Shown here piece by piece: positions 7,460 to 61,121 of a stretch of DNA of 64,000 nt (the stretch's first letter is position 1; every line of letters starts with the position of its first letter). The DNA is from Patescibacteria group bacterium (GTDB lineage: Bacteria > Patescibacteriota > Minisyncoccia > Portnoybacterales > UBA2143): contig JAHJSM010000001.1 of NCBI GenBank assembly GCA_018830295.1, forward strand, positions 1,980 through 65,979, in the 5' to 3' direction. A program made the translations under genes and the position numbers. The notes under the pieces are model-generated. The model saw nothing but the letters and a program-made list of their open reading frames with translations, was not told where the DNA came from and searched no databases.

Positions 7460-7467
7460 AAACTTAC

Positions 7468-11381: not shown

Positions 11382-11389
11382 GCTAATTA

Positions 11390-11420: not shown

Positions 11421-11428
11421 GTCTTAAA

Positions 11429-11683
11429 TTACAACCCTAATTTTTCAACAATCTTATCCCTGTCAAATCCGACGATCATTTCTCCGTTAATTTCAATCAC
11501 AGGCACGCCCATTTGTCCTGATTTTTCAATCATTTCCTCCCTCGCTTTTTCATCCTCCGCCACATTAATATGTTCGTACTGAACGCCTTTTTCGTCCAAA
11601 AACGCCCCCAAAGTTACGCAATATGGGCAAGATGGAGTGCTGAAAACTCTAACTTTATTTTGACTATTTGTATTGTTTTCCAT
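11429..11683 (-). CDS. Glutaredoxin / NrdH-like redoxin. The likely start is M10 (MENN...); the tracked N-terminus MGTVPG is the translated B-repeat
   Basis: CPYC active site in a thioredoxin-fold context. Confidence 0.75.
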   Translation of the reverse strand: MENNTNSQNKVRVFSTPSCPYCVTLGAFLDEKGVQYEHINVAEDEKAREEMIEKSGQMGVPVIEINGEMIVGFDRDKIVEKLGL

Positions 11684-11695: not shown

Positions 11696-11730
11696 GGGGA
11701 CAGTCCCCATTCAGAATGGGGACTGTCCCC
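11696..11730. repeat. Family-B palindrome GGGGACAGTCCCC-ATTCAGAAT-GGGGACTGTCCCC
   Basis: Read directly; 13-bp arms with a 9-nt spacer. Confidence 0.95.
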
Positions 11731-13326: not shown

Positions 13327-13415
13327 TTGACAATAACAGTTATTTTGATACAATATAGTTAATCACTACGAAAAAGACCCTGATGCGGTTTCGTCCGCAT
13401 TGGGGGCTTTTTTGT
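13327..13415 (+). ncRNA. Candidate small antisense RNA: a strong sigma70-like promoter (TTGACA-N16-TGaTACAAT, 13327-13354) followed about 30 nt later by a hairpin plus T-run (13384-13415)
   Basis: Motifs read on the plus strand. There is no plus-strand ORF here. The transcript would overlap the 3' end of the BRO-N gene on the opposite strand. Confidence 0.3.
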
Positions 13416-26800: not shown

Positions 26801-29800
26801 TAGGAACAAGCAACTGAATTAGCATCGGTCGCTGTAAATGTTAGTGGTATATCAGCGATGTAAACAGTGTCTGCCACAGGGGAAATAAAGCTACTAATAA
26901 CTGGATTCGTTTTATCCCAAACCAAAGTCATTGTATCAGAAGAACTTTTTCCTGCATTATCAACAACTGTTAAACGGATTGTATAAGTATCGTCTGGGTT
27001 TGTTCCGTTTGCTTCAATTGTTGTATCTTCTGTGCTTGGTGTTCCAAAAGTAATTGTTCCAGCTCCACTTGTGGTTACATCTGTCCATAAATAACTTGCT
27101 ACTCCAGAAACACTATCATCAACTGTTGCATCTTGAGTAAATAGAGCGTTAACAATTTTATTTGTTCCAGCCTCTACATTAGGATCAGTTAAATCAACTT
27201 TAAATGTTTGATTTGCTATTTCTTCGTCATTCCCTGCAACATCTACTGAGTAATAATACAAAGTATCAGTGCCTTCTGAAGCAGTTAATATTCCTGTATA
27301 TTCTGCATAAGTTCCAGATGTCCCCCATTTATAATAAATTTTATCACAACCGCTTGTATCATCAGCGCAAGTCAATGTTATTGTTGGTTGCGTCACATAC
27401 CAGTTGCTCGTTCCATTTGGACTTACAGGACTTGTAATAAGAGTTGTTGCCGGAACAACTGTGTCCTTGATAATTCCACCCTCGCTGTCAGCTCCTATAT
27501 TTCCAGATGTATCAGCATCTTTGAAATATAAAGTAAATGAAGCGCCTTCTACCACTCCGCTAAATTCAGCGATAGCAGACATTTTTGTGACCCCGCTTGC
27601 GCAAACTGTCCAATTAGTGTCATCAACAGAACATTGCGAATTAGTTGAATCAGTTGCAAAAGTTATTACAGTATCACTATTTACATAAGCGCCAGTCAAC
27701 GGAGCAGTTATATTTACTACTGGAGCAATCATATCTTTAGTTGCGATACTGATTCCGGCTGAACTAACATTTCCCGCCGCATCAGTTAAAGTCGCGGAAG
27801 CTGTTAAATTTCCATCAGCCAAAGCTGAAACATCTATACTGGTAATATTAATATTCTCGCTTCCATCAACACTACTTACTCCCGTTATTTCTAAGGCTTC
27901 TTTATCTTTTACTGAATAACTTACAACAGCATTTGCTTCGCCAGTACCAGTAATAGTCATTGTTGAATTAACAATATTAATATCTGTTGCTAATATAGTC
28001 GGAGCGCCCGGCGTATTCGCGTCAATAGTTTTTACAACATCAATTCCATTTATTGAACCGCCGATATTTCCAACCAAATCAGTTAATGTAACGCCTGTTA
28101 ATTGCAAAGGTGAAGTTTGGTCCAATTGATCTTCCTCAACCGTATAAGTCGCCGTATAAGTTGTGCCATCAACAGTTAACCAAATCAAAGTTCCGCCATT
28201 ATAAACAGTTGGGCTAATAACCAAACCTGTTTCTGGAATAGTAGGGGTAACTGTAAAAATAATAGTATTCCCTACTTTTAATATTCCTGCTGTTGTTGCA
28301 TTAGAAATTACCGATGTTATAGCGGGAGCAAATGTATCAATATCATAACTAGCAGAACTTGTAGGTCCAACTGGAGCATTTCCGGCTACATCAGTCCAGT
28401 TAGTGCCAACGGTGATAACATTTTCATTATCATCAATATCTATTGCAGGAGTAAGGGTAGCTGTATAGATTTTTGCATCTCCATTGTCAATAGTAAAATT
28501 AGATAATGTCCCGTTTTCAATAACCGTCACATCATCGACAGTAAATCCAGTTGGTACTTCTGAAAATGCAAAGGTTACTGCGGCGGTTTCTCCGACTTTT
28601 AGAGCTGTGTCATTAAGAGTAATTGTAACTGTTGGTTCTAATGTATCAACATCAAATATTCCTGTGCTATCAGCATCCATCACATTCCCAGGTGTAGCTA
28701 AATCTACCGCGTCAGACACAATAATTATTGCCGTTGCTTCTTCGTTCGCATCTGAGAGAGTGAATATTTCTGTCCAAGTATTTCCAGACCAAGCGCCATC
28801 ACTTTGAGTTATTATAACGCCTATTATTCCCGTAAAGCTAAAAGTCGGGGCTGTAGAATTCATCGCCTCGCTAAATACAACAGTTATCGTAACATCTCCC
28901 ACTTTTGCCAAACTTGGGTTTGCTGTCACGCTAACAATAGTTGGCTTTGCTCCATCACTTACATCTTGATTTTCTACTTGAAGCAAGGCATTCTTTGAAT
29001 TATCCTCAAATGCGCCAACTGCAATTTCTAAATCTTCAGAATCGTCTGTAATCGCTGATGTTCCTAAATCTGAACCAAAAGTCAATACCACTACATCATC
29101 TTTGAATTCATTAATAAAAAACCCTGTCGGATTAATCCCTTTTAAAGTTATATTTTCAAGAGGATCTATGTAACCCCCAATGTCGTCTTCGCTAAATGTT
29201 AATTCAACGGTGGTTGAATTTGTTAAAACAGCTGTTTCCAATATTGGAGCAATACCATCAAAAGTAATAGGGCTTGCCACTGGAGCAGAAAGTCCAGCTA
29301 AATCTTTAACATCCCCAACGTAACCTACATTAGGAGTTTCTCCTGTCCCGAAATTAGTTCCCAACGTTAAAGTGATAACCCCATTTAATTCACTAGTGCC
29401 TGTTATTGTATAGCCCTCTACACTAAAATCAGCTATTGCATCTGTAGTTCCATCCAAATCCTCAGAAAATGCCAATTCAATAGTATTTATCGTTTTAGTT
29501 CTGGTTGACCAAAGTACAGGGTTAGCCTCATCTGTAGAAGTTTGAGAAAAACTTGCCAATGGATTACCAACCATATCTGCTCCACTTCCAGCAGTATAAA
29601 CAACAACTTTCGCTTCCGTTCCAGTTGCTTTATTTTCCACAACAATATCAAAAGTATTATCGTTTACTATGCCTCCAGTATCTATGGTAATTACAGGAGC
29701 TGAACCACATATAAAATCGCCTGCAGAAAAAGTTGAGTCATCTACTGCTTCACTAAATACAATAGTAGCCATTTCCACATTTCCATCACCATTGGTATCT

Positions 29801-30351
29801 TTAGTGGTGATTGATAAAATTGTCGGCGCTGTCACATCAACAGTTGTTTTTGTATCAGTGTTAAATGTATAACCCTCATTTACATCTCTTGTCGCAACAC
29901 CCCATGTATATTCCGTGTCTACTGTAGGCGTTGGAGATGTAGCATTAAAAGCAACATTAACGCTATTGTCAGCAGTTAAAATACTATCGCTAAATACATC
30001 TGTCATGCAAACAGCTTGTAAACTAGAAGATTCTGAATCATTTGTCCACCCCGCAGGGCAAGAAATAGTGCTTGTGTCTATTAAAAAACCAGATCCACTT
30101 TCAACGCTTATAGTGATTTTATACACAGAATCCGCTCCATTATTCGTCACTGTAAATCCATAAGCATCAGTAGAACCGCCAGCAACAAATTCCGGCGCAG
30201 TAGTCGCTGTCGCCGTATGTTCCGCCAAAACAAAATTATAAACAAAAAAACCGCCCATGATTAAGACGGCAAACAAAATTAAAAAAGGCGACCACCTAAG
30301 CCCCCCCCCAGAAACTTTTTCCCTCCAACGAGAAATATGAGAATTATTCAT
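23824..30351 (-). CDS. Giant (2175 aa) surface adhesin-like protein with Ig-like (Big) repeats and a right-handed beta-helix segment
   Basis: N-terminal TM/signal region. A ~105-aa repeat unit ending in TIDANTP occurs three times. The NxxNxI.NN repeats (NITNNTIHD...NIENNEFYNN) are typical of parallel beta-helix. Confidence 0.85.
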   Translation of the reverse strand: MNNSHISRWREKVSGGGLRWSPFLILFAVLIMGGFFVYNFVLAEHTATATTAPEFVAGGSTDAYGFTVTNNGADSVYKITISVESGSGFLIDTSTISCPAGWTNDSESSSLQAVCMTDVFSDSILTADNSVNVAFNATSPTPTVDTEYTWGVATRDVNEGYTFNTDTKTTVDVTAPTILSITTKDTNGDGNVEMATIVFSEAVDDSTFSAGDFICGSAPVITIDTGGIVNDNTFDIVVENKATGTEAKVVVYTAGSGADMVGNPLASFSQTSTDEANPVLWSTRTKTINTIELAFSEDLDGTTDAIADFSVEGYTITGTSELNGVITLTLGTNFGTGETPNVGYVGDVKDLAGLSAPVASPITFDGIAPILETAVLTNSTTVELTFSEDDIGGYIDPLENITLKGINPTGFFINEFKDDVVVLTFGSDLGTSAITDDSEDLEIAVGAFEDNSKNALLQVENQDVSDGAKPTIVSVTANPSLAKVGDVTITVVFSEAMNSTAPTFSFTGIIGVIITQSDGAWSGNTWTEIFTLSDANEEATAIIIVSDAVDLATPGNVMDADSTGIFDVDTLEPTVTITLNDTALKVGETAAVTFAFSEVPTGFTVDDVTVIENGTLSNFTIDNGDAKIYTATLTPAIDIDDNENVITVGTNWTDVAGNAPVGPTSSASYDIDTFAPAITSVISNATTAGILKVGNTIIFTVTPTIPETGLVISPTVYNGGTLIWLTVDGTTYTATYTVEEDQLDQTSPLQLTGVTLTDLVGNIGGSINGIDVVKTIDANTPGAPTILATDINIVNSTMTITGTGEANAVVSYSVKDKEALEITGVSSVDGSENINITSIDVSALADGNLTASATLTDAAGNVSSAGISIATKDMIAPVVNITAPLTGAYVNSDTVITFATDSTNSQCSVDDTNWTVCASGVTKMSAIAEFSGVVEGASFTLYFKDADTSGNIGADSEGGIIKDTVVPATTLITSPVSPNGTSNWYVTQPTITLTCADDTSGCDKIYYKWGTSGTYAEYTGILTASEGTDTLYYYSVDVAGNDEEIANQTFKVDLTDPNVEAGTNKIVNALFTQDATVDDSVSGVASYLWTDVTTSGAGTITFGTPSTEDTTIEANGTNPDDTYTIRLTVVDNAGKSSSDTMTLVWDKTNPVISSFISPVADTVYIADIPLTFTATDANSVACSYTINGGTLIDVSCLGAMIPNANLNDGRNALVLSATDSAGNTVSKDSVSFVYNYNKILIVDVTFGTTDVDFINIQEAINKATEGDTINVSAGTYAENLTINKALNLVGAGKNITTINGNLEITANDVSVTEFTISAGGVLIDLPVGVTSVVISNNILVGQGASVGGRGVLFDRPGVYGVNITNNTIHDLTSGVYLGNSGSGIVNIENNEFYNNTAGIGAINYATVKLNYFHDNAEDIGIADYASNYLVQRNKFNSPVINYGSISQAFAENWWGSASGPIHADNPNGIGIGSLSGNFNYRPWCTNESCDLIDETAPIAILPDVVSPISSDEITLSVSGDQVVYYKYDLDDRGYGAETPFATAISETGLSEDSHIISVIGRDQAGNWQAEGSATTYTWTVDTVAPTISKIEVSPNSGTAKVGDTVILTITADAVGYTASVITVNSVDVTAPLVDNNDNTYTATYLVVEGNLDVASGAITASVILKDTAGNENIAYTTVTANTLAIDANTPVISSVTSDATGAGWLKIGDTVTFTVDVATTETGLTITPATYNGGNLTWTAVSGGDIYTATYTVEEGQSDQTTTLQLTGAQATDPAGNVSIAVDGSDVAKTIDANTPTVALLVFPSTLQGGSQYLIKWDAIDDNFSNAPIKLKYSDDNKYSWNDIVINTANDGEYSWLVPNVNSSKCYIKITVTDLAGNNIISQNVDAFGISVDSTSPTVELINPNGGENWQAGSVHNITWDASDNITAMGDLKTKLDYSKDGGTNWTTIIESDNNPQPFYQWTVPEEAIGENVAIRIIVTDEVGKEGSSARSISITEAVVEPTPICTDNGGGTWTCDIQLNTGWNLISLPVIFSNTDIATVLTGINDKIILVKYYNSGEWLNYVPGQVKTLTTMEDGKGYWVNMTNPAVLTVTGTEMPEFSNPSPTYEVVQGWNLIGLKSTSARMLSSTYLQSLTGSYILSDENNVNRTDDYMNSGEGYWLWMNQAGNIVTFNEK

Positions 30352-39793: not shown

Positions 39794-40954
39794 CTATATC
39801 CTCTTATCTTTTTTAATATCCTGCCTTATTTTCTCCATAAAATCAAACATAAAACGCAAATTATGAATTGTCGCCAGGCGCGCCGCGAGTATTTCTTTTG
39901 CTCTGAAAAGATGATGTAAATAGGCGCGAGTGAAATTTTGACAAGTATAACACTGGCAATTTTTCATAATTGGTTTTTTATCTATTTTATAAGTTGTTTT
40001 AAAAATATCCAATTTGCCTCGCTCAGTCAATAGCGTCCCATGCCTCGCCAGTCGCGTCGGCTCAACGCAGTCAAAAAGGTCAATTCCTCTTTTAACCGCT
40101 TCTCTAACATCTTCTAAATACCCAATACCTAATAAATGGCGCAGCTTGTTTTCGGGAAGATAGGGAATAATCCAATCAAGCGCCTTTTTCATCTCGCCTT
40201 TCCCAAACGAACCTCCTATTCCAAATCCATCAAAAGGCATTTCGCCGATAAAGCGCGCGCTTTCTTTTCTTAAATCCTCAAAAAGACCGCCTTGAACAAT
40301 GCCAAAAAGAAATTGATTATCTTTATTTTTCGCCTTTAAACATCTTTCTGCCCAGCGATGCGTCCGTCCCATCGCCTTTTTTGTGTAATCATAATCTGCC
40401 AAAGGAGAAGAACATTCATCAAAAGCGAAAATAATATCAGCGCCTAAGTCCTCTTGAATCTTGATTGAAATTTCTGGCGTAAAGCGATGCGCGGAACCGT
40501 CCAAATGAGAGGTAAAATCAACCCCCTCCTCATCAATCTTGACTAATGAAGCATGGGAGGAATGGGGACAGTCCCCAATTTTTGGGGACTGTCCCCATTC
40601 CTTTTCCCCCTCTTTCAAAATCTTACCAACCTTATCTTGAATCGCCATCCCTAAACTAAAAACCTGAAAACCGCCACTATCAGTCGCCGTCACTCCTTGC
40701 CAATTCATAAATTTATGCAGCCCGCCCATCTTCTTTACAATTTTATTCCCCGGCTGAAGATACAAATGATAAGCGTTAGCCAAAACGCCCTCAAAACCAA
40801 TTTTTTTAATATCTTCCGGGGTTAATCCTTTAACCGACGCCTTAGTCGCCACGGGAAAAAACGCCGGCGTTCTCATTACCCCGTTAGCGGTTTTAATCAC
40901 TCCCAACCGCGCCTGCGATTTTGAATGTTTTTTTGTAATTTTGAAAAATGACAT
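39794..40954 (-). CDS. tgt: Queuine tRNA-ribosyltransferase. The likely start is M17 (MSFFKIT...); the tracked N-terminus MGAAPVAGAAP is repeat-derived. The gene carries an in-frame 33-nt palindromic insertion
   Basis: DSGGFQV, FDEC and CxCxxC...H zinc site motifs, collinear with E. coli Tgt. Confidence 0.9.
   Translation of the reverse strand: MSFFKITKKHSKSQARLGVIKTANGVMRTPAFFPVATKASVKGLTPEDIKKIGFEGVLANAYHLYLQPGNKIVKKMGGLHKFMNWQGVTATDSGGFQVFSLGMAIQDKVGKILKEGEKEWGQSPKIGDCPHSSHASLVKIDEEGVDFTSHLDGSAHRFTPEISIKIQEDLGADIIFAFDECSSPLADYDYTKKAMGRTHRWAERCLKAKNKDNQFLFGIVQGGLFEDLRKESARFIGEMPFDGFGIGGSFGKGEMKKALDWIIPYLPENKLRHLLGIGYLEDVREAVKRGIDLFDCVEPTRLARHGTLLTERGKLDIFKTTYKIDKKPIMKNCQCYTCQNFTRAYLHHLFRAKEILAARLATIHNLRFMFDFMEKIRQDIKKDKRI
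40564..40596. repeat. Family-B palindrome GGGGACAGTCCCC-AATTTTT-GGGGACTGTCCCC lying inside the tgt coding sequence (33 nt, in frame)
   Basis: Read directly. It translates as ...EWGQSPKIGDCPH... within a region that is about 27 aa longer than in E. coli Tgt. Confidence 0.9.
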
Positions 40955-40969
40955 AAATTTATGCTTGTT

Positions 40970-41000
40970 GGGGGCTGCCCCCGCAACGGGGGCAGCCCCC
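40970..41000. repeat. Family-A palindrome (GCAAC spacer)
   Basis: Exact copy, in the tgt / SpoU methyltransferase spacer. Confidence 0.95.
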
Positions 41001-41006
41001 AACTCT

Positions 41007-41462
41007 TTATTCTCTTATTTTATATCCCGCCACTCCAAACGCGACTACCACATTAAGCGACTCTTTCTTCCCCGCCATCGGCAAATGAATAATCTTATCT
41101 GATTTTTTCAAAACCGAAAGCGAGACGCCTTTAACTTCATTTCCAATCACCAAAGCCATCGGAAATTTCGGCTTGAATTTATTATAAGCGACGCTATTTT
41201 TCGTCTGCTCTAAAGCGACGATAAAAACGCCTTCTTTCTTAAGTTTGTCAATGACTCGCCATATTTGCGAATGATATTCCCACGGAATATTTTTTTCCGC
41301 GCCTAAAGCGGTCTTTGAAATTTTATCTCGCGGCGGCTTTCCGCAAATCCCGCATAAAAAAATTTTATCAACGCCCAAAGCATCGGCTGTCCTAAAGACC
41401 GAACCGATATTCTCCAAACTGCGAATATTATCGCAAACAACATAAAATTTATTTTTTCCCAT
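41007..41462 (-). CDS. SpoU/TrmH-family RNA 2'-O-methyltransferase. The likely start is M18; the tracked N-terminus is repeat-derived
   Basis: NIGSVFRTADALG and the C-terminal SPOUT knot motifs (LVIGNE, LNVVVA). Confidence 0.8.
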   Translation of the reverse strand: MGKNKFYVVCDNIRSLENIGSVFRTADALGVDKIFLCGICGKPPRDKISKTALGAEKNIPWEYHSQIWRVIDKLKKEGVFIVALEQTKNSVAYNKFKPKFPMALVIGNEVKGVSLSVLKKSDKIIHLPMAGKKESLNVVVAFGVAGYKIRE

Positions 41463-41476: not shown

Positions 41477-41507
41477 GGGGGCTGCCCCCGCAGCGGGGGC
41501 AGCCCCC
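41477..41507. repeat. Family-A palindrome (GCAGC spacer)
   Basis: GGGGGCTGCCCCCGCAGCGGGGGCAGCCCCC. Confidence 0.95.
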
Positions 41508-45103: not shown

Positions 45104-45115
45104 TTTCTTAAATTT

Positions 45116-45146
45116 GGGGGCTGCCCCCGCAACGGGGGCAGCCCCC
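45116..45146. repeat. Family-A palindrome (GCAAC spacer)
   Basis: Exact copy, between the GH1 start and the mutM stop. Confidence 0.95.
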
Positions 45147-45153
45147 AAATTTC

Positions 45154-45960
45154 TTACCTCTGACATCGCGGACAAAAATACGATGAACGACTGCCTGTTT
45201 TTACCCTTTTAATTTTTTCTCCGCAAACGCGGCAATCTTCTCCCTCACGCTGATAAACCTTCGCAAGCGGCATATACCCTCCCTTTCTCCCGTAAGCGTC
45301 AAGATAATCCCTGTCCGAACTCCCTTTCTTTTTTAAAGCAAGCGACAAAACATTTTTAATCGCCTCATAAATCGCCTTTATCTCTTTTTCTTTTAATGTC
45401 CCCGCGTTTCTATCAGGCAAAACCCCGGCAGAAAACAAAATCTCGCAAGCGTAAATATTGCCAATCCCCGCGATAAATTTTTGGTCCATCAAAAGCGTTT
45501 TAATGACCGACTTTTTCCTTTTCTCAATCCGTTCCTTAAATAAATTAAAAGAAAAACTTTTATCAAGCGGCTCGGGACCAAAATTCATTTCATCAAAAAA
45601 ATTGCCCAAATCTTTTTCCGAAATCAATTTAACAAAACCAAACTTCCGCAAGTCATTATGAAGCAAATAACTCCCGTCCGTAAAATAATAAACAATATGA
45701 CTATGCTTCCCCACCTCTCCGTTAAAAATCAGTTGCCCGCTCAATTTCAAATGAATAACTAAAAAGTTCCCACTAGACAGTTTAATCAAAAGCAACTTCG
45801 CCCGCCTCTCAACACCCTCTATTTTCGCCCCCACGACCGCCTTCTTAAATTTCCCCAAAGACGCCTTAACCATTCCTGGCAAAGAAACCAAAACCCGCTC
45901 AATCTTTTTCCCTTTGAGCGCCTGCCCCAACTGCCTCCCAATTGTCTCCACCTCCGGCAT
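45154..45960 (-). CDS. mutM: Formamidopyrimidine-DNA glycosylase
   Basis: MPEVET N-terminus (the catalytic Pro after Met) and a C-terminal CxxC...CxxC zinc finger. Confidence 0.85.
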   Translation of the reverse strand: MPEVETIGRQLGQALKGKKIERVLVSLPGMVKASLGKFKKAVVGAKIEGVERRAKLLLIKLSSGNFLVIHLKLSGQLIFNGEVGKHSHIVYYFTDGSYLLHNDLRKFGFVKLISEKDLGNFFDEMNFGPEPLDKSFSFNLFKERIEKRKKSVIKTLLMDQKFIAGIGNIYACEILFSAGVLPDRNAGTLKEKEIKAIYEAIKNVLSLALKKKGSSDRDYLDAYGRKGGYMPLAKVYQREGEDCRVCGEKIKRVKTGSRSSYFCPRCQR

Positions 45961-47033: not shown

Positions 47034-48270
47034 TGATTTCTTCTAATAAGTTCTGTTTTTTGACTAATTTTATCTCTTCGCTGTCTCTTTTTTTAATTTC
47101 AACCGAATCTGATTCAACCGTTTTCCCGCTAACCACTAAACGCCAAGGAATGCCAATTAAGTCGGCGTCGGCAAACTTCGCGCCAGGAGAAGCGTTGTCT
47201 CGGTCATCATAAAGAACCTCTATTTTATTTTCTATTAATTTATTATAAATATCATCGGCGAAATCTCGCGTTTCTTTTTCTTTGCCCAAAGACAACAAAT
47301 GAACAGCGTAAGGGGCCACTTCTTCAGGCCAAATAATTCCTTTCTCATCATGATGAACTTCAACGATCGTCCCCATTGTTCGACTCGGTCCAAGACCATA
47401 ACATCCCATCTCAACAAAATGGATTTTATCGCTCGCATCTGCATACGAAAAACCAAACGGCTCGGAAAATCGCGTTCCCAGTTTAAAAATATTTCCGACT
47501 TCAACCGCTTTTTCCACTCGCAAATCGCCGCTTTGACAAACGGGGCATTCTTTTTGCTCTTCAATGATTTCTTTATTAACCGCCACCTTGCATTTATCGC
47601 AGATATAAATCGTATCTTCGCCGGCGTCCGTTAGCGTTTGAAATTCATGGGAATATTTTGAAAACGCTCCACCCGAAGCAAAGGTCAGATAAGTGATGTC
47701 TCCCAATCCGCATCTTTTGTAAACCTTAAAATACGCTTCCTTCGCTACTTCGTAAAATTTATCCAAGTCCTCTTTGTCGGTATGAAAAGAATACAAATCC
47801 TTCATGGAAAATTCCCTCCCCCGAATCAGTCCTGCTTTGGCGCGCAACTCGTTTCTGAATTTGGTTTGAATTTGATAGACATAAGCGGGCAATTCTTTGT
47901 ATGAAGAAACATATTTTTTAACTAAGGGGACAACGATTTCCTCGTGGGTCGCGCCCAAAGCGTATTCTTTTTTGTCGGCGCCCGCCAACTTGAAAAGAAC
48001 ATCAAAGTTATCCCAACGACCTGTTTGCTCCCAAACCTTTTTCGGCGTCAGAGAAGGCATCAAAATTTCCTGCCCGCCAATCGCATTCATCTCTTCGCGA
48101 ATTATATGACAAATCTTGTTATGAACTCTCAACCCCAAAGGCAAAAACGAGTAAACGCCCGCGCTCACTTTTTCTATAAAACCGCCTCTAATTAAAACTT
48201 CCGCGTTAAAACTGGTCTCATCCTTCGGCGCCTCTTTAATTGTTTTTGTAAAAAGTTTTGATTGTCTCAT
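47026..48270 (-). CDS. proS: Proline--tRNA ligase, short form without an editing insertion and with a CxxC...CxxC zinc-ribbon insert
   Basis: Collinear with the ProRS class II catalytic core (YQIQTKFRNE, GREFSMKD) and anticodon-binding domain. Confidence 0.85.
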   Translation of the reverse strand: MRQSKLFTKTIKEAPKDETSFNAEVLIRGGFIEKVSAGVYSFLPLGLRVHNKICHIIREEMNAIGGQEILMPSLTPKKVWEQTGRWDNFDVLFKLAGADKKEYALGATHEEIVVPLVKKYVSSYKELPAYVYQIQTKFRNELRAKAGLIRGREFSMKDLYSFHTDKEDLDKFYEVAKEAYFKVYKRCGLGDITYLTFASGGAFSKYSHEFQTLTDAGEDTIYICDKCKVAVNKEIIEEQKECPVCQSGDLRVEKAVEVGNIFKLGTRFSEPFGFSYADASDKIHFVEMGCYGLGPSRTMGTIVEVHHDEKGIIWPEEVAPYAVHLLSLGKEKETRDFADDIYNKLIENKIEVLYDDRDNASPGAKFADADLIGIPWRLVVSGKTVESDSVEIKKRDSEEIKLVKKQNLLEEINA

Positions 48271-48279
48271 AAGTTAATT

Positions 48280-48310
48280 GGGGGCTGCCCCCGCAACGGG
48301 GGCAGCCCCC
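48280..48310. repeat. Family-A palindrome (GCAAC spacer)
   Basis: Exact copy, upstream of the proS start. Confidence 0.95.
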
Positions 48311-48353
48311 AATTTTAACTAAAACAACCACTCAATGGGGTTGTTTTTTTGCT

Positions 48354-48596
48354 TTATGATTTAATTTCCAGCGCGAGTATTCTTTCGTCGTGTTCTTCTA
48401 TTTTATTGTCATGTCTTTTATAAAGTTCAGTTGATGCTGTGTTCTCCTGCTCTAAATCACCCAATTTTTTAAAAATCTTATCTTGACCAGTTAAAATTTT
48501 ATCAAACTTATCTTTAATTTGATTATCAACACTAGCAAATTTCTTATCAATATTATTAAATTTTTTATCTAAGTAATCTACAAATTCTTTATCCAT
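48354..48596 (-). CDS. Small coiled-coil protein, paralog 3 (80 aa)
   Basis: NIDKKFASVDNQIKDKFDKILTGQDKIFKKLGDLEQEN...IEEHDERILALE aligns with the C-terminal half of the 2472-2873 product. Confidence 0.5.
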   Translation of the reverse strand: MDKEFVDYLDKKFNNIDKKFASVDNQIKDKFDKILTGQDKIFKKLGDLEQENTASTELYKRHDNKIEEHDERILALEIKS

Positions 48597-52067: not shown

Positions 52068-52098
52068 GGGGACTGTCCCTGTTGCGGGGACAGTCCCC
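52068..52098. repeat. Family-B palindrome with the A-type spacer (GGGGACTGTCCCT-GTTGC-GGGGACAGTCCCC)
   Basis: Read directly. It links the A and B families, which share the GTTGC/GCAAC spacer. Confidence 0.95.
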
Positions 52099-52116
52099 AA
52101 TCTGGTTTACATTATA

Positions 52117-53229
52117 TCACGCTACCTTATTTTCCTCAATGATTTTTATAATCGCCTCCTTTATTCCTATCTCAAACCTCTCCTCGGAAAATTTCTCAGC
52201 TCTTTTTCTGATAACAGCAGGACTGTAGGCGTCAAAATTTATTAGCAACCTGCGAACGCCATCCGCCAGAACTTCTGTCACTGGCTCGTCAAAAAATTCG
52301 CCAGTGATTCCTTCTATGACCGTTTCAACGGCGCCGCCTTTGCGGTATGCTAAAACCGGTTTGCCAAAACTCATCGCTTCAACAGGCGCGATGCCAAAAT
52401 CATCCTCGCCGGGAAAAATAAAAGCGCGGCAATTTTTAAGACATTCTCGCGCTGTCTCATCCGATTGCCAGCCCAAAAACCTAACATTAGAATGAGCCAT
52501 TTTTTTAAGCCGTTTAGAATCAGGACCTTCGCCGATAATAACCAAAGGCAATTCCAATTTATTAAAAGCGTCAATCGCCAAATCAATCCTCTTGTAAGGG
52601 GTTAATTGGGAAATAATCAAAAAGAAGCCATCATCGCGAGCGGACTGCCAATCAGCGCCCGTCAAAAAAGCCGGCGGGTAAATCACTTTTGCTTCCCGCC
52701 CGTAATATTTTTTAATCCGCTCGGCTGTTGTTTTTGAATTGGCGATAAAATAGTCAACGCGATTAGAGGCCGCTCTATCCCACATTCGGATATAGTGCAT
52801 GACAATCTTAATCGCCGCGTTAGTGAAAAATCCTTTTTTCTGCTCTTTAATATAGCGGCAATACCTGTCCCAACTAAAACTCATCGGGCTGTGACAATAG
52901 CAAATATGAACCGTTTTCGGTCGTGTAATCACGCCCTTGATAAAACTACTTGAAGAGGAAATAACCAAATCAAAATCCCTCAAATCAATCGTCTCGGCCG
53001 CCGTCGGAATAAAAGGCAAAAGATATTTCTGCCGCCGACGCCAAAACTTCGGAAACTTCTGTAAAAAAGAAGTCCTGATTTTTTTCCCGGGAAAATACTT
53101 TCCCATTTTCTCCTCATCATAAAGAAGAGTATAAATCTCCGCCTTTGGAAAAATTTTCCGCAAACATAAAAAGACCCTCTCGGCCCCTCCAAAGCGGATT
53201 AAATAATCATGCAATAAAGCGATTTTCAT
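52117..53229 (-). CDS. GT4-family glycosyltransferase. The likely start is M17 (MKIALLHDY...), giving an ATGA overlap with the upstream gene
   Basis: GT-B fold; the EDDFGIAPVEAMSFGKPV segment fits the E-x7-E GT4 motif. Confidence 0.8.
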   Translation of the reverse strand: MKIALLHDYLIRFGGAERVFLCLRKIFPKAEIYTLLYDEEKMGKYFPGKKIRTSFLQKFPKFWRRRQKYLLPFIPTAAETIDLRDFDLVISSSSSFIKGVITRPKTVHICYCHSPMSFSWDRYCRYIKEQKKGFFTNAAIKIVMHYIRMWDRAASNRVDYFIANSKTTAERIKKYYGREAKVIYPPAFLTGADWQSARDDGFFLIISQLTPYKRIDLAIDAFNKLELPLVIIGEGPDSKRLKKMAHSNVRFLGWQSDETARECLKNCRAFIFPGEDDFGIAPVEAMSFGKPVLAYRKGGAVETVIEGITGEFFDEPVTEVLADGVRRLLINFDAYSPAVIRKRAEKFSEERFEIGIKEAIIKIIEENKVA

Positions 53230-54356
53230 CTTGACATATTTTGTTTGGTTAAAACTCCCAGCGTTTCCCGCGCGCATTTTTCCCAGGAGAATTTTTTAAT
53301 GTTCTGAAAGCCCTTTTCAATTAAACCCCTTCTCAACTCCCCGTCGCTTATTACTTTATACACTGCTTCTGATATTTTTTCAATGTTTTTTGGCGAAACG
53401 AAGAGCGCGCCCTCGCCCGCTACCTCCGGCAAAGAAGATGTCTCTGAAGCAATGACTGGACAACCCATCGCCTGCGCTTCCAAAATCGGCATTCCAAAGC
53501 CCTCGTAAAAAACAGGAAAAAGAAAAGCGGCGGCGTTTTTTAACAACTCCCATTTCTTCGCCTCGCTCACAAAACCCATTTCAACAATATCTTTATTCCC
53601 CGCAATTCTCCCAGCGAACGCCTCATAACCATACCCTCTTCCCCCCGCCAAAACCAACTTATGCGGCAACCCGTATTTTTTTTTAAACAACTCAAACGCC
53701 CCAATCATCCCCCCAATATTCTTCTTCCCCTCCAACCGCCCAATAAAAAGAATATAGGGACTGGAAAATGGGGGCTGCCCCCGAAACGGGGGGCAGCCCC
53801 CATTTTTATCAGGGGACAGTCCCCCGCCGCGGGGGCTGCCCCCGTCTTCATAGCCGTGATAAACAACTGATATTTTCTCCGGATTGGCTTTATATATTTT
53901 AACTAAATCGTTTTTAGTGTTTTGGGAAATGGCGATAACGCGCGCTGAATTTTTTAACGCGTATTTTGCGCTCCAACGGAGATACGCCAAACGCTTTTTG
54001 GGATACATTTCGGGGTAATGCTCATACTCCAATCCGTGAATAGTTGTGACTGAGTTTTTTGGATGAACAAGCGGCAGAACATGGACAGGAATAAAAAGAA
54101 TATCTGGCTCACGCGCCGCCATTTCAGCGGACAACCTGCATTGCGTCCACGACGGCAAGCCCCAGCGAAGCCGCTTAATTTTAAAATTCTCCGGCAATGG
54201 AAAATCAAAAATTTTGTTAAAAGGAGAATATAAAACAAAACGATGCTCTTCGCTTTCCTTAAGCATCGTTAAATGTTTAATTAACTGATAAGTATATTCT
54301 TCAACGCCCGTCCGCGGCTCAACAAAAGCCGCCATAGCGTTAATGCCGATTTTCAT
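53226..54356 (-). CDS. GT4-family glycosyltransferase carrying an in-frame 75-nt insertion built from palindromic repeats
   Basis: The GT4 C-terminal domain (FYEGFGMPILEAQAMGCPVIAS). The segment DGGSPRGGGLSPDKNGGCPPFRGQPPFS is encoded by the repeats at 53770-53844. Confidence 0.75.
   Translation of the reverse strand: MKIGINAMAAFVEPRTGVEEYTYQLIKHLTMLKESEEHRFVLYSPFNKIFDFPLPENFKIKRLRWGLPSWTQCRLSAEMAAREPDILFIPVHVLPLVHPKNSVTTIHGLEYEHYPEMYPKKRLAYLRWSAKYALKNSARVIAISQNTKNDLVKIYKANPEKISVVYHGYEDGGSPRGGGLSPDKNGGCPPFRGQPPFSSPYILFIGRLEGKKNIGGMIGAFELFKKKYGLPHKLVLAGGRGYGYEAFAGRIAGNKDIVEMGFVSEAKKWELLKNAAAFLFPVFYEGFGMPILEAQAMGCPVIASETSSLPEVAGEGALFVSPKNIEKISEAVYKVISDGELRRGLIEKGFQNIKKFSWEKCARETLGVLTKQNMSR
53770..53844. 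repeat. Family-A palindrome (GAAAC spacer, one extra G) fused to a chimeric B-left/A-left unit (GGGGACAGTCCCCC-GCCGC-GGGGGCTGCCCCC), all inside a coding sequence
   Basis: Read directly; 75 nt, a multiple of three. Confidence 0.9.
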
Positions 54357-56711: not shown

Positions 56712-57701
56712 ATGACTTTAAGAACGCGCCGCATTATTCTTTGTTTTGTTTTCCTTCTTTTTGTTTTTGCCGCGCCGGCAATCCTTTTTTATTCGTGGGG
56801 ATACGGCTTTGATTGGCAAAAGAAAAAACCCGTCTTAACTGGCGGATTTTATTTTGAATCCATCCCAAAAAAAGCGCGAATCGCGCTCAATGACAAACCG
56901 TCAAAAGAAACCCCTGTTTTTATTAAACGGCTTCTGCCTGGGGAATATCAGGTTAAGATAACCAAAGACGAATTTCAGCCCTGGCAAAAAAAATTAAAAA
57001 TTGAATCGGGACTGGTCGGCGAAGCGAGAAATATTCTTCTCATTCCTTTATCTCCTCAAATTGAGGTGATAGACGAAAATCTGCCCGATGATTTTTCTCT
57101 TGAAAAATTTCTTCTCCAAGAAAAAACAAATACCGATATTTTTTATATTGAAAAGCAAAATTATATTCTCTACAAAACAAACGCGAACAATTCCGCGCAA
57201 GAGCAAATCTGTCTCACCCCTTTGCCCGCGCAAGAATATAGCATTATCATTTCTCCTGTTCAAAAAATCTCCGTTTTGGGCGAAAACAATGAAATGTATC
57301 TCCTGAACCCCGAAACAAAGGCCTTTGAATTAATCGCGCGCGATGTCCAGAATGTTCAATTTTCCAGCGATAATAAAAAAGTCCTCTATTCCACGCCCAA
57401 TGAAATCTGGGTCTATTACTTGGAAGATATTTTAGGCCAGCCAAACAAAAAAGCAAAAGATAAAGAACTCATCACCCGCCTCGGAGAAAAAATTAAAAAC
57501 GCGGTCTGGTATGGAAAAACCAACGAACATATTATTTTCTCAACTGGACAAACCATTAAAATCGCTGAATTAGATGGACGCGACGAAAGAAACATCACTG
57601 ATATCATTAAATTAAACACTGACCAAATCGCCTACGACCCCAAAAAAGAAACCATCCTCGCCGTCAAAAACAAAAAACTCATCCAAATTTCCTTGAAGTA
57701 G
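56712..57701 (+). CDS. Membrane-anchored PEGA-domain protein
   Basis: N-terminal TM helix. IALNDKPSKETPVFIKRLLPGEYQVKITKDEFQPW fits the PEGA domain pattern. One of only two plus-strand genes. Confidence 0.7.
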   Translation: MTLRTRRIILCFVFLLFVFAAPAILFYSWGYGFDWQKKKPVLTGGFYFESIPKKARIALNDKPSKETPVFIKRLLPGEYQVKITKDEFQPWQKKLKIESGLVGEARNILLIPLSPQIEVIDENLPDDFSLEKFLLQEKTNTDIFYIEKQNYILYKTNANNSAQEQICLTPLPAQEYSIIISPVQKISVLGENNEMYLLNPETKAFELIARDVQNVQFSSDNKKVLYSTPNEIWVYYLEDILGQPNKKAKDKELITRLGEKIKNAVWYGKTNEHIIFSTGQTIKIAELDGRDERNITDIIKLNTDQIAYDPKKETILAVKNKKLIQISLK

Positions 57702-57706
57702 TTTTT

Positions 57707-57786
57707 GGGGACAGTCCCTCGCAACAGAGAGGGACTGTCCCCGAAACGCGTGATCGGGGGCTGCCCCCGCAACGGGGGCAGCCCCC
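57707..57786. repeat. Composite element copy 1: B-palindrome (GGGGACAGTCCCTC-GCAACAGAG-AGGGACTGTCCCC), linker GAAACGCGTGATC, then A-palindrome
   Basis: Read directly; AGATTA follows it. Confidence 0.95.
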
Positions 57787-57792
57787 AGATTA

Positions 57793-58000
57793 AAGATCTC
57801 TGTTATAAGGTCAGACCTTCTGAGCGCGACCTTTAGAAAGAAATAAAAGGTCAGACCTTTCCATCAGTTTGTCACGAGAAAATAAACTGTTACGAGTTGT
57901 CGTCTTGAAAGGTCTGACCTTTTATTTCTTTCAGAAGGTCTGACATCGCAAGTAGCGACATTTCTTAAGGTCGCGCTTGAGAGGTCTGACCTTTGAATTT
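57793..58000. repeat. About 200-bp nested imperfect palindrome built from AAGGTCAGACCTT / AAGGTCTGACCTT units between convergent genes
   Basis: At least six copies of the 13-bp palindrome. Arms of about 60 nt (57810-57862 against the reverse complement of 57905-57996) with a 35-nt extra segment in the right arm. Confidence 0.8.
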
Positions 58001-58008
58001 TGAATTGA

Positions 58009-58115
58009 AAAACCCCGCGAAAGCGGGGTTTTATCTTTGGGGACAGTCCCTCGCCGCGAGGGACTGTCCCCGGAACGCGTGATCGGGGGCTGCCCCCGCA
58101 ACGGGGGCAGCCCCC
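58009..58115. repeat. Hairpin AAAACCCCGCGAAAGCGGGGTTTTATC followed by composite element copy 2 (B-palindrome, GGAACGCGTGATC, A-palindrome)
   Basis: Read directly. The ORF-track peptide MGTVPRREGLSPERVIGGCPRNGGSPQI is its translation. Confidence 0.95.
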
Positions 58116-58187
58116 AGATTAACTTTGAAATGAAAAAAGGGATATTCAATTATGAATATCCCTTTTATTTTTTTGAAAAACGAACAA

Positions 58188-60323
58188 CTAACTCCAACAA
58201 TCAGGACTTAATTGACCGCTTCTTTTTACATACGGGCACATTTGATTGAATTTATCATATACCCATTTAATTTGTTTAAGAAACTGCCATAATAAGATAA
58301 ATGGCCCAAAAAACATTTTGATGGCTTTAATAACCATTTCTCTTCTTTCATACTTTATTCTTGATTTTTCATCTATTTGATGAATCGCTTCATCAAACTC
58401 CATCCCGCCTACAACCATCTGAAATGCTTTGAACAACTTGTCTGAAAAAGAACGCGTTTGAAGTTTTCCAAACTTTCCTAAGAATTTTTCAAGAATATCT
58501 ACGATTTCCTCTGACATAACAGGCAGTAATATTCTACATGCTTGCGCTTTGTTTTCTTCGTAGGCAAAAATAGAATATATTATCAGATAAGCCCGGCGAA
58601 GCAACTTAGCTTGTTGTATTTCATCTATGTTTTTATAATAACGATTTTTGTTAAGAAGCCGTTTAAGTTTGAATCGACTAATCGGCAAAAATACCATTGT
58701 CTTGTCGTCAGAGAACCATTGACTATATCGTAGCGCTTCTGGGTCATAATTAAGCGTTAGATATACCATCCAGCCAGAAAAACATAAGCACATTATCCAC
58801 GCAGAAGTAACAAGCAATACTTGAAAAATTGACATTACTTCAACAGCAAGAATTATATTATAAATCATCAATATCAGACCACCTACAATTATCGCGCCGC
58901 TAATACCCGTGGCAAAACTAATAAGCCAATTTAACGCTTTTTCGTTCGTAATTAAAGAACATATCGCGAAAAGTAATATAGATAAAGCCATTAGCCCAAA
59001 GATAAACAATCCCGGAATTCCAAGCATAAGCAACGCTTTCCAAAATATCGCCCAAAATACGGCAATCGCCTCGCTAAACAGATGTCCATAACGCAGAAAA
59101 AGTTCCGCTACAATACGCGCGCCGAACATAAGATAGATGAATTGAAAAACAAAATGATGTTCATTAAAGTTCGGAAGCCTGTGTCTGTCGTTATAAACCG
59201 CCCAATTCCCAAAATATAAACAAAAAACCGCGATAATGGCTATAGCGCCGAGAACGCCAAATCCTGGAAATAGGAAGTCAAAAAGCATTTTAGATACCGC
59301 AGCAAAAGCAAGCAATGCGAAAACAACAACAGATACAATCAAAACTACATCGGCATATTTTTTTGTTGAATCCTCAAGCCGGTCAGAGTAAGCCCTTAAA
59401 ACTTCTCTTTTATTTGGTGGTAAAATCCAACGGATAAGCGACCATAATAAAGCGCTAACAATCCAAAGCGGCGTTATTAACCCCAAAACAAAAAGCGGTC
59501 CCGCCCATTGCAAATCCGACCATGAAGCAACTGAATCGTAGAATAACCCGCCGCAAACAGCAGCCGCAGGAGAAAGAACCCAGAATACCAAATGCGCGAT
59601 TATTGTCCACCAAAACCCGGGACAGATATGACTTTTAAGTTGGACTGTTTGATCTCTCATCCATCCATAACTGCTTCTGGCTGTCCTATACAACCACCAA
59701 TATTTCCCAAATTCCTGATTAACGATAAAATCATTCGCATGATTTTTAATAGACAAGAAGTCGCGCCATGTTTTTACCTGGGCTCTAATATCATCATTCA
59801 ATCCGTTGCGATAAGCGCTAAACCCCATATCAAGACCCATTAAATTGTATGACCAAGACCCCCTTCCTTTGTCATGAACGGAATAATCAACTTCTTCCGC
59901 TAAAAGAGATTCAACCTTAAAGCGTTTTTGCCATCGCTCAAAACGAGTCAAAACGCGCGGTTGTTTTTGGTTTACAATTAGGTCTAAATAATTTTGTCTA
60001 ATGGCGTCTATCTCCTCCTTTGATATTCGCCGCAGAAACGATGAATACGACTCAAAATTAATATTATACCTCCACAATACCCGACGCCAAATTGAGACAG
60101 GCAACGATTCAATCATTGAGATAATGAATATGTATTGATTGCTATGTCCTATAAACATATTCAAAAATTTCCCTCGTGTTTCCCTGTCCTGAATCCGAAC
60201 TTCTGTTTGCGTAAATTCCCAGAATTTTAACGCTTGATGAATACTGTCATCAGGTCGTCGCGGCGTATTATCTACGCCAATACAATCAACAACTCTTTGA
60301 TATAGATCATTAATCTTGTTCAT
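58188..60323 (-). CDS. Large polytopic membrane protein (711 aa) with an N-terminal soluble domain, about 10 TM helices and a C-terminal soluble domain; function unknown
   Basis: Long intact ORF with an extended hydrophobic core. No family recognised. Confidence 0.7.
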   Translation of the reverse strand: MNKINDLYQRVVDCIGVDNTPRRPDDSIHQALKFWEFTQTEVRIQDRETRGKFLNMFIGHSNQYIFIISMIESLPVSIWRRVLWRYNINFESYSSFLRRISKEEIDAIRQNYLDLIVNQKQPRVLTRFERWQKRFKVESLLAEEVDYSVHDKGRGSWSYNLMGLDMGFSAYRNGLNDDIRAQVKTWRDFLSIKNHANDFIVNQEFGKYWWLYRTARSSYGWMRDQTVQLKSHICPGFWWTIIAHLVFWVLSPAAAVCGGLFYDSVASWSDLQWAGPLFVLGLITPLWIVSALLWSLIRWILPPNKREVLRAYSDRLEDSTKKYADVVLIVSVVVFALLAFAAVSKMLFDFLFPGFGVLGAIAIIAVFCLYFGNWAVYNDRHRLPNFNEHHFVFQFIYLMFGARIVAELFLRYGHLFSEAIAVFWAIFWKALLMLGIPGLFIFGLMALSILLFAICSLITNEKALNWLISFATGISGAIIVGGLILMIYNIILAVEVMSIFQVLLVTSAWIMCLCFSGWMVYLTLNYDPEALRYSQWFSDDKTMVFLPISRFKLKRLLNKNRYYKNIDEIQQAKLLRRAYLIIYSIFAYEENKAQACRILLPVMSEEIVDILEKFLGKFGKLQTRSFSDKLFKAFQMVVGGMEFDEAIHQIDEKSRIKYERREMVIKAIKMFFGPFILLWQFLKQIKWVYDKFNQMCPYVKRSGQLSPDCWS

Positions 60324-60451
60324 TAGCCCCCTCCTTTTCTGATTTAATGAATTATAAGATGCTTATATTATTTATTTATTTTTAAAGATCCAACCAAAAT
60401 ATAACAAATTATGTCGTTTTTGTCAAAATTTCCTTGGAATGATTGAGATGT

Positions 60452-60566
60452 GGGGACAGTCCCTCGCAACAGAGAGGGACTGTCCCCGGAACGCGTGAAT
60501 GGGGGCTGCCCCCGCAACGGGGGCAGCCCCCAGATTAAAAAAACCCCGCGAAAGCGGGGTTTTATC
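60452..60566. repeat. Composite element copy 3 (B-palindrome, GGAACGCGTGAAT, A-palindrome), followed by the same CCCCGCGAAAGCGGGG hairpin
   Basis: Read directly; it has the same components, in the same orientation, as copy 2. Confidence 0.95.
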
Positions 60567-60575
60567 TTTTGTTTC

Positions 60576-61121
60576 TTATCTCTTCCTCCACTGCGGAGCT
60601 CGGCGGGCTTTTTTGAGTCCTGGCTTTTTTCTTTCTACACTGCGCGGGTCGCGAGTAAGATAACCTGCTCTTTTTAATTTCTTTGAAAAATCAGCGTTAA
60701 ATTTAACTAAAGCGCGCGCCAATCCATGACGAATCGCGTCCGCTTGTCCTCTCATGCCGCCGCCTTTTACCTTAGCCGTCACCTCGAACCTATTAAGCGA
60801 CTTCATTTTTGAAAGCGCGTTGATAACCGTCTGACGCAACTCAAAAGTAGTAAAAAATTCATCGTACGGCTTTCCGTTAACCGTAATTCTTCCTTTTTCA
60901 TCTTCAAACGGCTGGCAAGTAAAAAGACGAACGCGAGCCGTCGCTTCTTTGCGCCGTCCTACCGCTTCGTAATATCGTTTAACCTCGTCTTTTTTGACTA
61001 ATTTTTTTTCCACTTTCACAACTGGTTTTTTCTTTACGACTGGCTTTTTCTTCGCGACTGTTTTTTTAGACGCGACTTTTTTAGTCAAAACTTTCTTTAT
61101 AACTTTCTTTTTTTCAGTCAT
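60576..61121 (-). CDS. rpsI: 30S ribosomal protein S9 with a lysine-rich N-terminal extension
   Basis: The C-terminal ~130 aa match S9 (GGGMRGQADAIRHGLARAL...KKARRAPQWRKR). About 50 extra K/V-rich residues at the N-terminus. Confidence 0.9.
   Translation of the reverse strand: MTEKKKVIKKVLTKKVASKKTVAKKKPVVKKKPVVKVEKKLVKKDEVKRYYEAVGRRKEATARVRLFTCQPFEDEKGRITVNGKPYDEFFTTFELRQTVINALSKMKSLNRFEVTAKVKGGGMRGQADAIRHGLARALVKFNADFSKKLKRAGYLTRDPRSVERKKPGLKKARRAPQWRKR

Follow-up and report, generated by a model that had tools for sequence, protein, structure and literature searches.

The 64,000-nucleotide stretch analysed here (the window) is part of contig JAHJSM010000001.1 from a Portnoybacteria-like Patescibacteria group bacterium, and toward its right end, between the gene for ribosomal protein S9 (rpsI) and a gene for a PEGA-domain protein, it carries a 711-amino-acid (aa) membrane protein gene bracketed by direct copies of a composite palindromic repeat (Table 1). 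Read along the minus strand, the order on the rpsI side is the rpsI stop codon, a hairpin that we call T, composite copy 3, a strong promoter, the Shine-Dalgarno sequence AAGGAGG and the 711-aa gene, and it continues on the PEGA side with a terminator hairpin, composite copy 2, a second T hairpin, a longer inverted repeat that we call element X, composite copy 1 and the stop codon of the PEGA gene, which is convergent to the 711-aa gene. The promoter of the 711-aa gene has the pattern TTGACA-17-TGnTATATT, and composite copy 1 begins 5 nt past the PEGA stop codon.

The composite is 83–89 bp long, and a repeat search returned three direct copies (57706-57794, 58035-58123 and 60451-60539), all three on the plus strand. 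Each consists of a B palindrome of 31–36 bp (GGGGACAGTCCCTC, a loop, and GAGGGACTGTCCCC), a linker of the form G[GA]AACGCGTGA[TA][CT], an A palindrome of 31 bp with 13-bp arms and a 5-nt loop (GGGGGCTGCCCCC GCAAC GGGGGCAGCCCCC), and the tail AGATTAA. Copies 1 and 3 agree with 97% identity, and copy 2 differs mainly in its shorter B loop. The 13-nt arms GGGGGCWGCCCCC and GGGGACWGTCCCC (family arm GGGGRCWGYCCCC) are each palindromic themselves, so that the two arms of an element are direct and inverted repeats at once, and between the A and B types G..C is changed to A..T in a compensated way, by which the arm stays palindromic. The T hairpin AAAAACCCCGCGAAAGCGGGGTTTTATCTTT, 31 nt long, is an exact direct repeat at 58008-58038 and 60539-60569. 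Relative to shuffled sequence the arm motifs are in 100- to 300-fold excess, with 13 B-arm matches (0.10 expected), 44 A-arm matches (0.16 expected) and two matches to the hairpin (0.01 expected). The preliminary description, made from the sequence alone, had placed three composites in one orientation and the accompanying hairpin at these positions, and in both respects it holds.

At 58009-58032, 60540-60563 and 58135-58166 a GC-rich stem-loop followed by a T run stands at the end of a gene, and the two T hairpins and the hairpin behind the 711-aa gene are ordinary intrinsic terminators; the T hairpin nearer the PEGA gene is probably the end of the PEGA transcript. The terminator at 58135-58166 is kept even in a strain with an alternative gene at the site (see below).

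The resemblance between copies 1 and 3 goes beyond the composite and reaches about 25 nt into the PEGA coding end, over 117 bp with 88.9% identity by BLAST and alignment. Because this likeness includes the 3′ end of the PEGA gene, it points to a duplicated block of PEGA end plus composite, 117 bp or longer, as the origin of copies 1 and 3, and not to transposition of the composite. Within the window and the scans described below, the linker of this locus is confined to the rpsI-PEGA composites, and from this common linker together with the piece of PEGA 3′ end in copies 1 and 3 we infer that the three composites are local duplicates (paralogues) and not independent insertions.

Table 1. Coordinates of genes and repeat elements in the window (strand left empty where none is assigned; CDS, coding sequence; ORF, open reading frame).
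Feature	Coordinates	Strand	Remarks
Single A palindrome	7429-7459		Split-transketolase gap; 8 nt past upstream stop, 18 nt before next ATG
Single A palindrome	11390-11420		Between glutaredoxin gene and pilin-like gene
Single B-type palindrome	11696-11730		Between trxB and glutaredoxin gene
B-type palindrome in frame within tgt	40564-40596		Inside ~35-aa insertion
Single A palindrome	40970-41000		Upstream of tgt
Single A palindrome	41477-41507		Loop GCAGC
Single A palindrome	45116-45146		
Single A palindrome	48280-48310		
Single B-type palindrome	52068-52098		GT4-holB junction
A palindrome and B/A hybrid, in frame within GT4 glycosyltransferase gene	53770-53843		
PEGA-domain protein gene, 329 aa, conserved left flank	56712-57701	+	Pfam PF08308, E=3e-6
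Composite copy 1	57706-57794	+	B 57707-57742, linker GAAACGCGTGATC, A 57756-57786, tail AGATTAAA
Element X (C-type), third dispersed repeat family	57797-58004		~200-bp long inverted repeat of AAGGTCWGACCTT motifs
T hairpin copy 1	58008-58038		Intrinsic-terminator-like, readable from both strands
Composite copy 2	58039-58123	+	B with short GCCGC loop, linker GGAACGCGTGATC, then A
Bidirectional terminator hairpin of 711-aa gene	58135-58166		14-bp stem, then T run
711-aa polytopic membrane protein gene (MBU2579406.1), stand-alone transcription unit	58188-60323	-	ORF
Sigma-70-like promoter of 711-aa gene	60398-60426	-	TTGACA, 17 nt, TG-TATATT; 11/12 matches
Flank of composite copy 3	60423-60450	+	Resembles last ~20-25 nt of PEGA CDS adjoining copy 1
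Composite copy 3	60451-60539	+	B, linker GGAACGCGTGAAT, then A; single A arm in L018-L021
T hairpin copy 2	60539-60569		rpsI operon terminator on minus strand, then seven T
rpsI (ribosomal protein S9), conserved right flank	60576-61121	-	Pfam PF00380, E=2.5e-41

Variation at the rpsI-PEGA site was followed in contigs from other samples (denoted by L numbers), which were gathered by exact-protein and cluster look-ups and whose flanking genes are 95–99% identical to those of the window; the identity of the PEGA flank across strains is 98.2–98.6%. Several arrangements emerge. First, the layout of the window (H1; Table 1) recurs with modifications in L018, L020 and L021 (H1b), which encode a 712-aa variant with 98.8% identity, have a composite copy 3 that is 18 bp shorter with only one A arm, carry an element X reduced to about 85 bp between GTCAGACCTT repeats, and have B loops flipped or exchanged between copies. 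Secondly, L019 (H1c) has a single composite between the terminator of the 711-aa gene and the PEGA gene; of the order composite-T-X-composite present in L018, T, element X and one composite are missing (204 bp between copies 1 and 2), and the junction falls inside a shared TTAATCT+A stretch. This is the expected product of recombination between direct copies 1 and 2. Thirdly, in H2 the 711-aa gene is replaced: rpsI, T and composite are followed by a promoter unlike that of H1 and a 300-aa membrane protein gene, after which come the same terminator, composite and PEGA gene; L026 reads from rpsI into the 300-aa gene and L022 from the 3′ end of that gene to PEGA. The flanks are 96–98.6% identical to the window, the left breakpoint coincides with the edge of B, and its counterpart on the right falls just before the terminator. 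Fourthly, H3 (L010 and L035) reads rpsI, a palindrome variant B′, T, X, half of an A palindrome, a composite, a 130-bp MITE-like element (MITE, miniature inverted-repeat transposable element), the 300-aa gene, another terminator and X again, and compared with H1 it lacks the 2,531-bp segment from T to T beside rpsI. Finally, H4 (L011), which likewise lacks the T-to-T segment beside rpsI, continues from rpsI through B′, T and the left arm of X into unrelated sequence.

Altogether, five contigs have the 711- or 712-aa gene at the site, and L026, L022 and L035 have the unrelated 300-aa gene there. From the differences among H1 to H4 it follows that the rpsI-PEGA site is structurally hypervariable within one species-level population. 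The preliminary description had proposed a test for presence or absence polymorphism of the gene in related strains, and variation at the locus is indeed present in the population, as the deletion in L019, the 300-aa gene in L026 and L022 and the missing T-to-T segment in L010 and L011. Its proposal that the direct repeats allow the enclosed unit to be excised, inverted or duplicated by recombination fares less evenly: the deletion between copies 1 and 2 bears out recombination, but none of the haplotypes compared has the 711-aa gene alone excised by copy 2 with copy 3, and none is inverted.

A few further details of these haplotypes are of note. The third variant, B′ (GAGGACACCCCTC GCGGC GAGGGGTGTCCTC), at 1581-1611 of L010 and 1599-1629 of L011, takes the place of the composite beside the rpsI terminator. 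The 300-aa gene of L026 is broken off after residue 204 by unrelated AT-rich sequence with a 67-aa ORF on the opposite strand (positions 1-250), one more structural variant of the site. The MITE-like inverted-repeat element of L035 (TGTCATGCCGAGCGAAGCCGAGGCATCC ... GGAATGACA, at 190-300) lies upstream of the alternative cassette gene, and an element of similar appearance lies upstream of a homologue of the 711-aa gene in a different genome (L004, 5713-5833).

The loops of the B palindromes also differ between strains. At 57707-57742, 58039-58071 and 60452-60487 the loop occurs in either orientation (GCAACAGA or TCTGTTGC) or as a short GCGGC, and in a comparison of the window with L018, L021, L022 and L026 a given site differs in its loop from strain to strain, with variants shifted between the copies. 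This pattern indicates loop flipping or conversion between copies, and that gene conversion is continuing.

Many of these contigs end inside repeats, and a collapse of repeats in short-read assembly could mimic both the deletion in L019 and the short form of X, which raises the question of whether the structural variation as a whole is an artefact. We regard this as very improbable: the alternative gene and its junctions (rpsI-T-[AB] and terminator-[AB]-PEGA) are unique sequence in single contigs from different samples, the short form of X is identical in three assemblies, and the copies of the composite can be told apart by linker and loop.

The 711-aa protein is predicted from hydropathy to have 8–9 membrane segments, at residues 239–522, between soluble N- and C-terminal regions, and the AlphaFold2 model, of moderate quality (mean predicted local distance difference score 70.5, predicted template modelling score 0.38), in which the N-terminal helical domain is confidently predicted, agrees with its earlier description as a polytopic membrane protein with two soluble domains. 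Remote-homology and structure comparisons, also suggested there, were rewarding in part: a profile search gave 240 clusters, E being below 1e-10 for nearly all of them, but there was no Pfam match to the protein and a Foldseek search of the model against the PDB gave nothing below E=1. Among the 150 clusters listed, most are of 700–850 aa and match over their full length; by word-indexed search there are 24 relatives, of which the nearest from outside the species has 37% identity. The motifs HICPGFW and, toward the C-terminus, CP[YF]V are conserved in the family. The protein would be an accessory envelope protein; the membrane-protein family to which it belongs is small and uncharacterised, and its fold is not recognisable. 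The homologues are stand-alone genes in unrelated neighbourhoods, and of the three homologue loci examined two have no comparable flanking repeats while the third (L004) has unrelated palindromic elements on both sides; on these grounds an intrinsic tie between the family and the composites was rejected. The 300-aa protein has no similarity to the 711-aa family and is a member of a separate small family, of Patescibacteria proteins.

Composites are found elsewhere too. Scanning of Joint Genome Institute metagenomes with the pattern B arm, 5–25 nt, A arm gave 11 stretches, and besides the rpsI-PEGA site and one unrelated Omnitrophota contig, B+A composites occur at at least four other loci in related contigs. 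The linker is particular to each locus and common to its local copies: TTGGGATTAAAAY at the map-thrS locus (L024, L034), AATRATGCTAAGTY around an operon of about 4 kb (L025, L030, L031), AAGAGAGGGGAT on either side of a dprA-like gene's 3′ end (L029) and TTTTGCATCTC in L027. A TTGACA...TATAAT promoter commonly lies 10–30 nt beyond the composites. The map-thrS locus (L024 10833-12075, L034 5155-6100) has the layout composite, promoter, gene, terminator, composite, and here too the gene differs, encoding 308 aa in L024 and 223 aa in L034; the two have in common the promoter and about 45 codons at the start (MSKKQVVGSMSEWSGVLKDFFRQI...) and no more, the remainder of the proteins being unrelated. 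Neither these variable proteins nor the alternative cassette proteins have a Pfam match. In a search of 185,579 reference genomes there was no meaningful match to the composite, the one match being from the unrelated Omnitrophota, so that the species is not represented in that set. In that metagenome-assembled genome (MAG; L007 2916-2947, L033 2150-2181) single B and A arms are adjacent, flanked by an A run on one side and a T run on the other, and have the look of a bidirectional terminator; the likeness, in a different phylum, is probably due to chance.

These loci invite the interpretation that B-linker-A is the attachment site of a site-specific cassette system, similar to integron attC or phage att sites, where a cassette of promoter, gene and terminator would insert, doubling the composite, and could be removed or exchanged by a dedicated recombinase. 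Same-linker direct composites bracket a transcription unit at three loci, the enclosed gene differs between strains at two of the three, the left replacement breakpoint in L026 is exactly at the edge of B, and the contigs that carry cassettes break at the repeats; as in attC arrays, structured palindromic sites in direct orientation lie between genes and the cassette content varies with the strain. However, neither an integrase nor another recombinase gene is found at or near any of the loci, there is no attI, and the neighbours are rps, rpl and rpoA genes, murA, mreB and GT4 genes. The palindromes are perfect hairpins without the extrahelical bases typical of attC, the cassettes have promoters and terminators of their own, and the breakpoints do not consistently fall at the sites: at map-thrS they are inside the gene and before the terminator, away from the composites, and the right breakpoint at rpsI-PEGA precedes the terminator. 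No haplotype with a single composite and no gene was found, and single elements are scattered at sites without cassettes. The A palindrome has zero matches in viral contigs, so a phage att site is unlikely. We consider a system of this kind quite unlikely overall, and keep it as a minority reading because same-linker composite pairs recur around variable units. In its most specific form, likewise doubtful, the same-linker pairs would be the working sites of an undescribed mechanism of cassette insertion or exchange in Patescibacteria, in which units of promoter, gene and terminator for membrane or surface proteins are inserted with duplication of a hairpin module of about 85–150 bp and exchanged among strains, without a nearby integrase of the integron type.

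The composites are only one form in which the palindromes occur. In the window A and B palindromes are present at 11 loci, where about 0.1–0.2 matches are expected by chance; nine of these loci are intergenic and two are in frame within genes, and additional copies of the family are present in related contigs. With composites and single palindromes at many unrelated loci, the composite is not specific to the 711-aa gene, and such wide occurrence is one of the findings that the preliminary description itself named as speaking against its reading. All eight single palindromes (Table 1) occupy small gaps between co-directional genes, 6–50 nt past the upstream stop and 8–18 nt ahead of the next ATG, and the short spacer before the ATG lacks a Shine-Dalgarno sequence. 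The flanks are AT-rich, with the consensus AWTT on one side and AAWY on the other. An A palindrome lies in the 57-nt gap of a transketolase (6439-8316) that is split into N- and C-terminal genes. Spacers without a Shine-Dalgarno sequence are those at 7410-7470, 11381-11430, 40955-41007, 45112-45154, 48270-48354 and 52100-52117, whereas the stand-alone cassette genes have a strong AAGGAGG.

The regularity of this placement could point to a function for the host, and the palindromes might be selected cis-elements, such as protectors of mRNA 3′ ends, modulators of translation or insulators of transcription and supercoiling, with repetition reflecting the common function. Consistent with this are the stereotyped positions, just past stops and before starts without Shine-Dalgarno sequences, several loci at which composites lie after a terminator and before the strong promoter that comes next, and predicted folds in which the hairpins are perfect and very stable; effects of this type are reported for repetitive extragenic palindromic (REP) elements of E. 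coli. Yet near-identical sequences stand at unrelated genes, two insertions lie in frame within tgt and the GT4 gene, the presence and type of element vary at an orthologous site between strains that are 98% identical, and most loops, read on the transcribed strand, are GUUGC and not of the GNRA type. We find it unlikely that selection for such a function explains the family, though a cis-acting role is compatible, as a secondary one, with the reading we prefer below, in which the palindromes are mobile repeats. By analogy, palindromes within operons probably affect mRNA 3′-end stability and translation, and a hairpin ahead of genes without Shine-Dalgarno sequences may take part in translation initiation or coupling. 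A GNRA-tetraloop RNA was rejected on the basis of the GUUGC loop. The alternative in the preliminary description of a structured-RNA module finds no support in Rfam, which gave no match at gathering score anywhere in the window and, when run in E-value mode on the two repeat regions, nothing more than noise from hairpins and terminators below the threshold.

The tgt gene (39794-40954, minus strand) has an in-frame insertion of about 35 residues at 40545-40650, with the peptide ...WGQSPKIGDCPH..., which is missing from solved TGT structures, and in the GT4 gene (53226-54356, minus strand) adjacent palindromes are translated into a Gly/Pro-rich stretch that links the two Rossmann halves. No variant of tgt or GT4 without the intragenic element was found among the strain variants on record, so both insertions are fixed in these strains. 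Insertion in frame without destruction of the gene is reminiscent of intragenic REPs and of the Rickettsia palindromic elements (RPE), although RPEs are 100–150 bp long with a CGTC tag whereas here a core of about 33 bp lies in an insertion of about 105 bp.

The junction between GT4 and holB shows insertion polymorphism at an orthologous position, being empty in L019 and L022, occupied by a B palindrome in the window, and occupied by a 130-bp X-type element in L018. Together with the insertion in tgt, this points to elements that are mobile, or in any case unstable. Element X, whose motif occurs nine times against 0.9 expected, is predicted to fold as a long hairpin, and at the rpsI-PEGA site L018, L020 and L021 have a shortened form of it and L019 has none; further X-type copies are at 16128-16202 of L018 and in L027 and L029. 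In its length of about 130–200 bp, its terminal inverted repeats, its presence at several loci and its polymorphism between strains X resembles a MITE, but neither a target-site duplication nor a parent transposon was identified for it.

Taken as a cassette site, the rpsI-PEGA gap is most similar to the minimal mobile elements of Neisseria, with their DNA uptake sequences (DUS) and Correia repeats, in which conserved flanks enclose differing whole-gene cassettes and small repeats lie at the borders. The structure that defines such elements is seen here, and exchange through homologous recombination is plausible from the sequences, although the borders are direct composite palindromes and locus-specific paralogues, unlike those of Neisseria. 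An extension of this parallel, in which the 13-mers are themselves uptake-type signals comparable to DUS pairs that double as terminators and the site is exchanged by transformation, appears highly improbable. Arms occur at about one per 2.3 kb and as inverted pairs at gene ends, pilin-like, dprA-like and comM-like genes adjoin elements, and cassettes are swapped between conserved flanks; against these points, arms almost never occur singly, inserted elements are accompanied by extra flanking sequence, and there are two or three different cores (A, B and B′).

The interpretation that we favor, with a probability of roughly 0.65, is that REP-like palindromes and clusters of them similar to bacterial interspersed mosaic elements (BIME) are mobile, pile up between transcription units, and recombine and gene-convert locally, at what is also a strain-variable cassette site. 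A, B, B′ and X would be small repeats of REP, BIME and MITE character that have colonised intergenic space and behave as small non-autonomous mobile DNA, and the B-linker-A composite would be a cluster in the manner of a BIME, made up of two members of the family. The copies, being direct repeats as well as palindromes, recombine and gene-convert, and the resulting deletions, losses of arms and flips of loops are seen when strains are compared. The rpsI-PEGA gap would be a cassette site of the minimal-mobile-element type, where alternative accessory genes are swapped between conserved flanks, most likely via homologous recombination in these flanks and the modules. Direct repeats may be tolerated around dispensable genes, where a deletion would do little harm. 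Of this account, the dispersal, the polymorphism, the deletion between copies and the replacement of the gene are seen in the sequences, and the way in which elements move, the homologous exchange and any regulatory role are inferred from them.

The likeness to REPs and BIMEs, known from Enterobacteria and Pseudomonas and including the systems in which REP doublets forming hairpins (REPINs) are paired with REP-associated tyrosine transposases (RAYTs), is extensive. The palindromes are short (31–36 bp) and GC-rich with many copies, they lie mostly just downstream of genes with occasional intragenic copies, such as have been reported for REPs (PMC3733652), and their insertions are polymorphic between strains; stem-loop palindromes of 20–40 bp, many dispersed copies and extragenic placement are all found. 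As in BIMEs, palindromic units with conserved linkers form mosaic clusters. There are also clear departures. A conserved GTAG or CGTC tetranucleotide at one end is a defining feature of REPs (PMC3733652) that is missing here, the stems are perfect and have no bulge, and each arm is self-palindromic. The composites join two different palindromes in the same orientation throughout, whereas BIMEs alternate the orientation of one REP type. The host is different as well, with a genome of about 0.75 Mb.

Several observations weigh against our interpretation. The absence of the end tag and of the imperfect stems of classical REPs is one. No transposase or recombinase was found among 20 window ORFs scanned with Pfam or at the annotated loci, and a RAYT gene (an IS200/IS605-type tyrosine transposase) was likewise absent from both. 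The filled GT4-holB site has no clear target-site duplication, and the deletion variants (L019 and the short X) come from short-read MAG assemblies, which are prone to repeat collapse. What passive accumulation explains least well is that, at two or three loci, pairs of composites with a common linker recur around transcription units that vary.

The rest of the window, with a G+C content of 39.6%, is mainly a minus-strand run of housekeeping genes for ribosomal proteins, rpoA, murA, mreB and enzymes of glycolysis and the pentose-phosphate pathway, and a scan for tRNA and tmRNA genes found none. The Pfam scans of the 20 ORFs gave housekeeping genes, one PD-(D/E)XK gene and one Bro-N gene; the last two, a PD-(D/E)XK_3 nuclease-family gene at 316-720 and a Bro-N domain gene at 13366-14253, are of families often linked to mobile elements or phages, and neither adjoins a palindrome. 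An ORF of 2,175 aa lies at 23824-30351 on the minus strand.

Patescibacteria genomes are tiny and streamlined, and to our knowledge the group is not known for REP-like selfish repeats. A full-text literature search gave nothing relevant on REP-type elements in Patescibacteria, and neither did a broader one that covered intergenic repeats of palindromic form in the candidate phyla radiation. No fewer than three families of palindromic elements are present in this lineage, between most of the transcription units examined and inside essential genes, and the repeats account for the breaks in the assemblies of these genomes at element sites. The elements coincide with sites where near-identical strains differ in accessory membrane proteins, and if the repeats drive or channel this variation they would offer episymbiotic bacteria a simple means of diversifying their surface.

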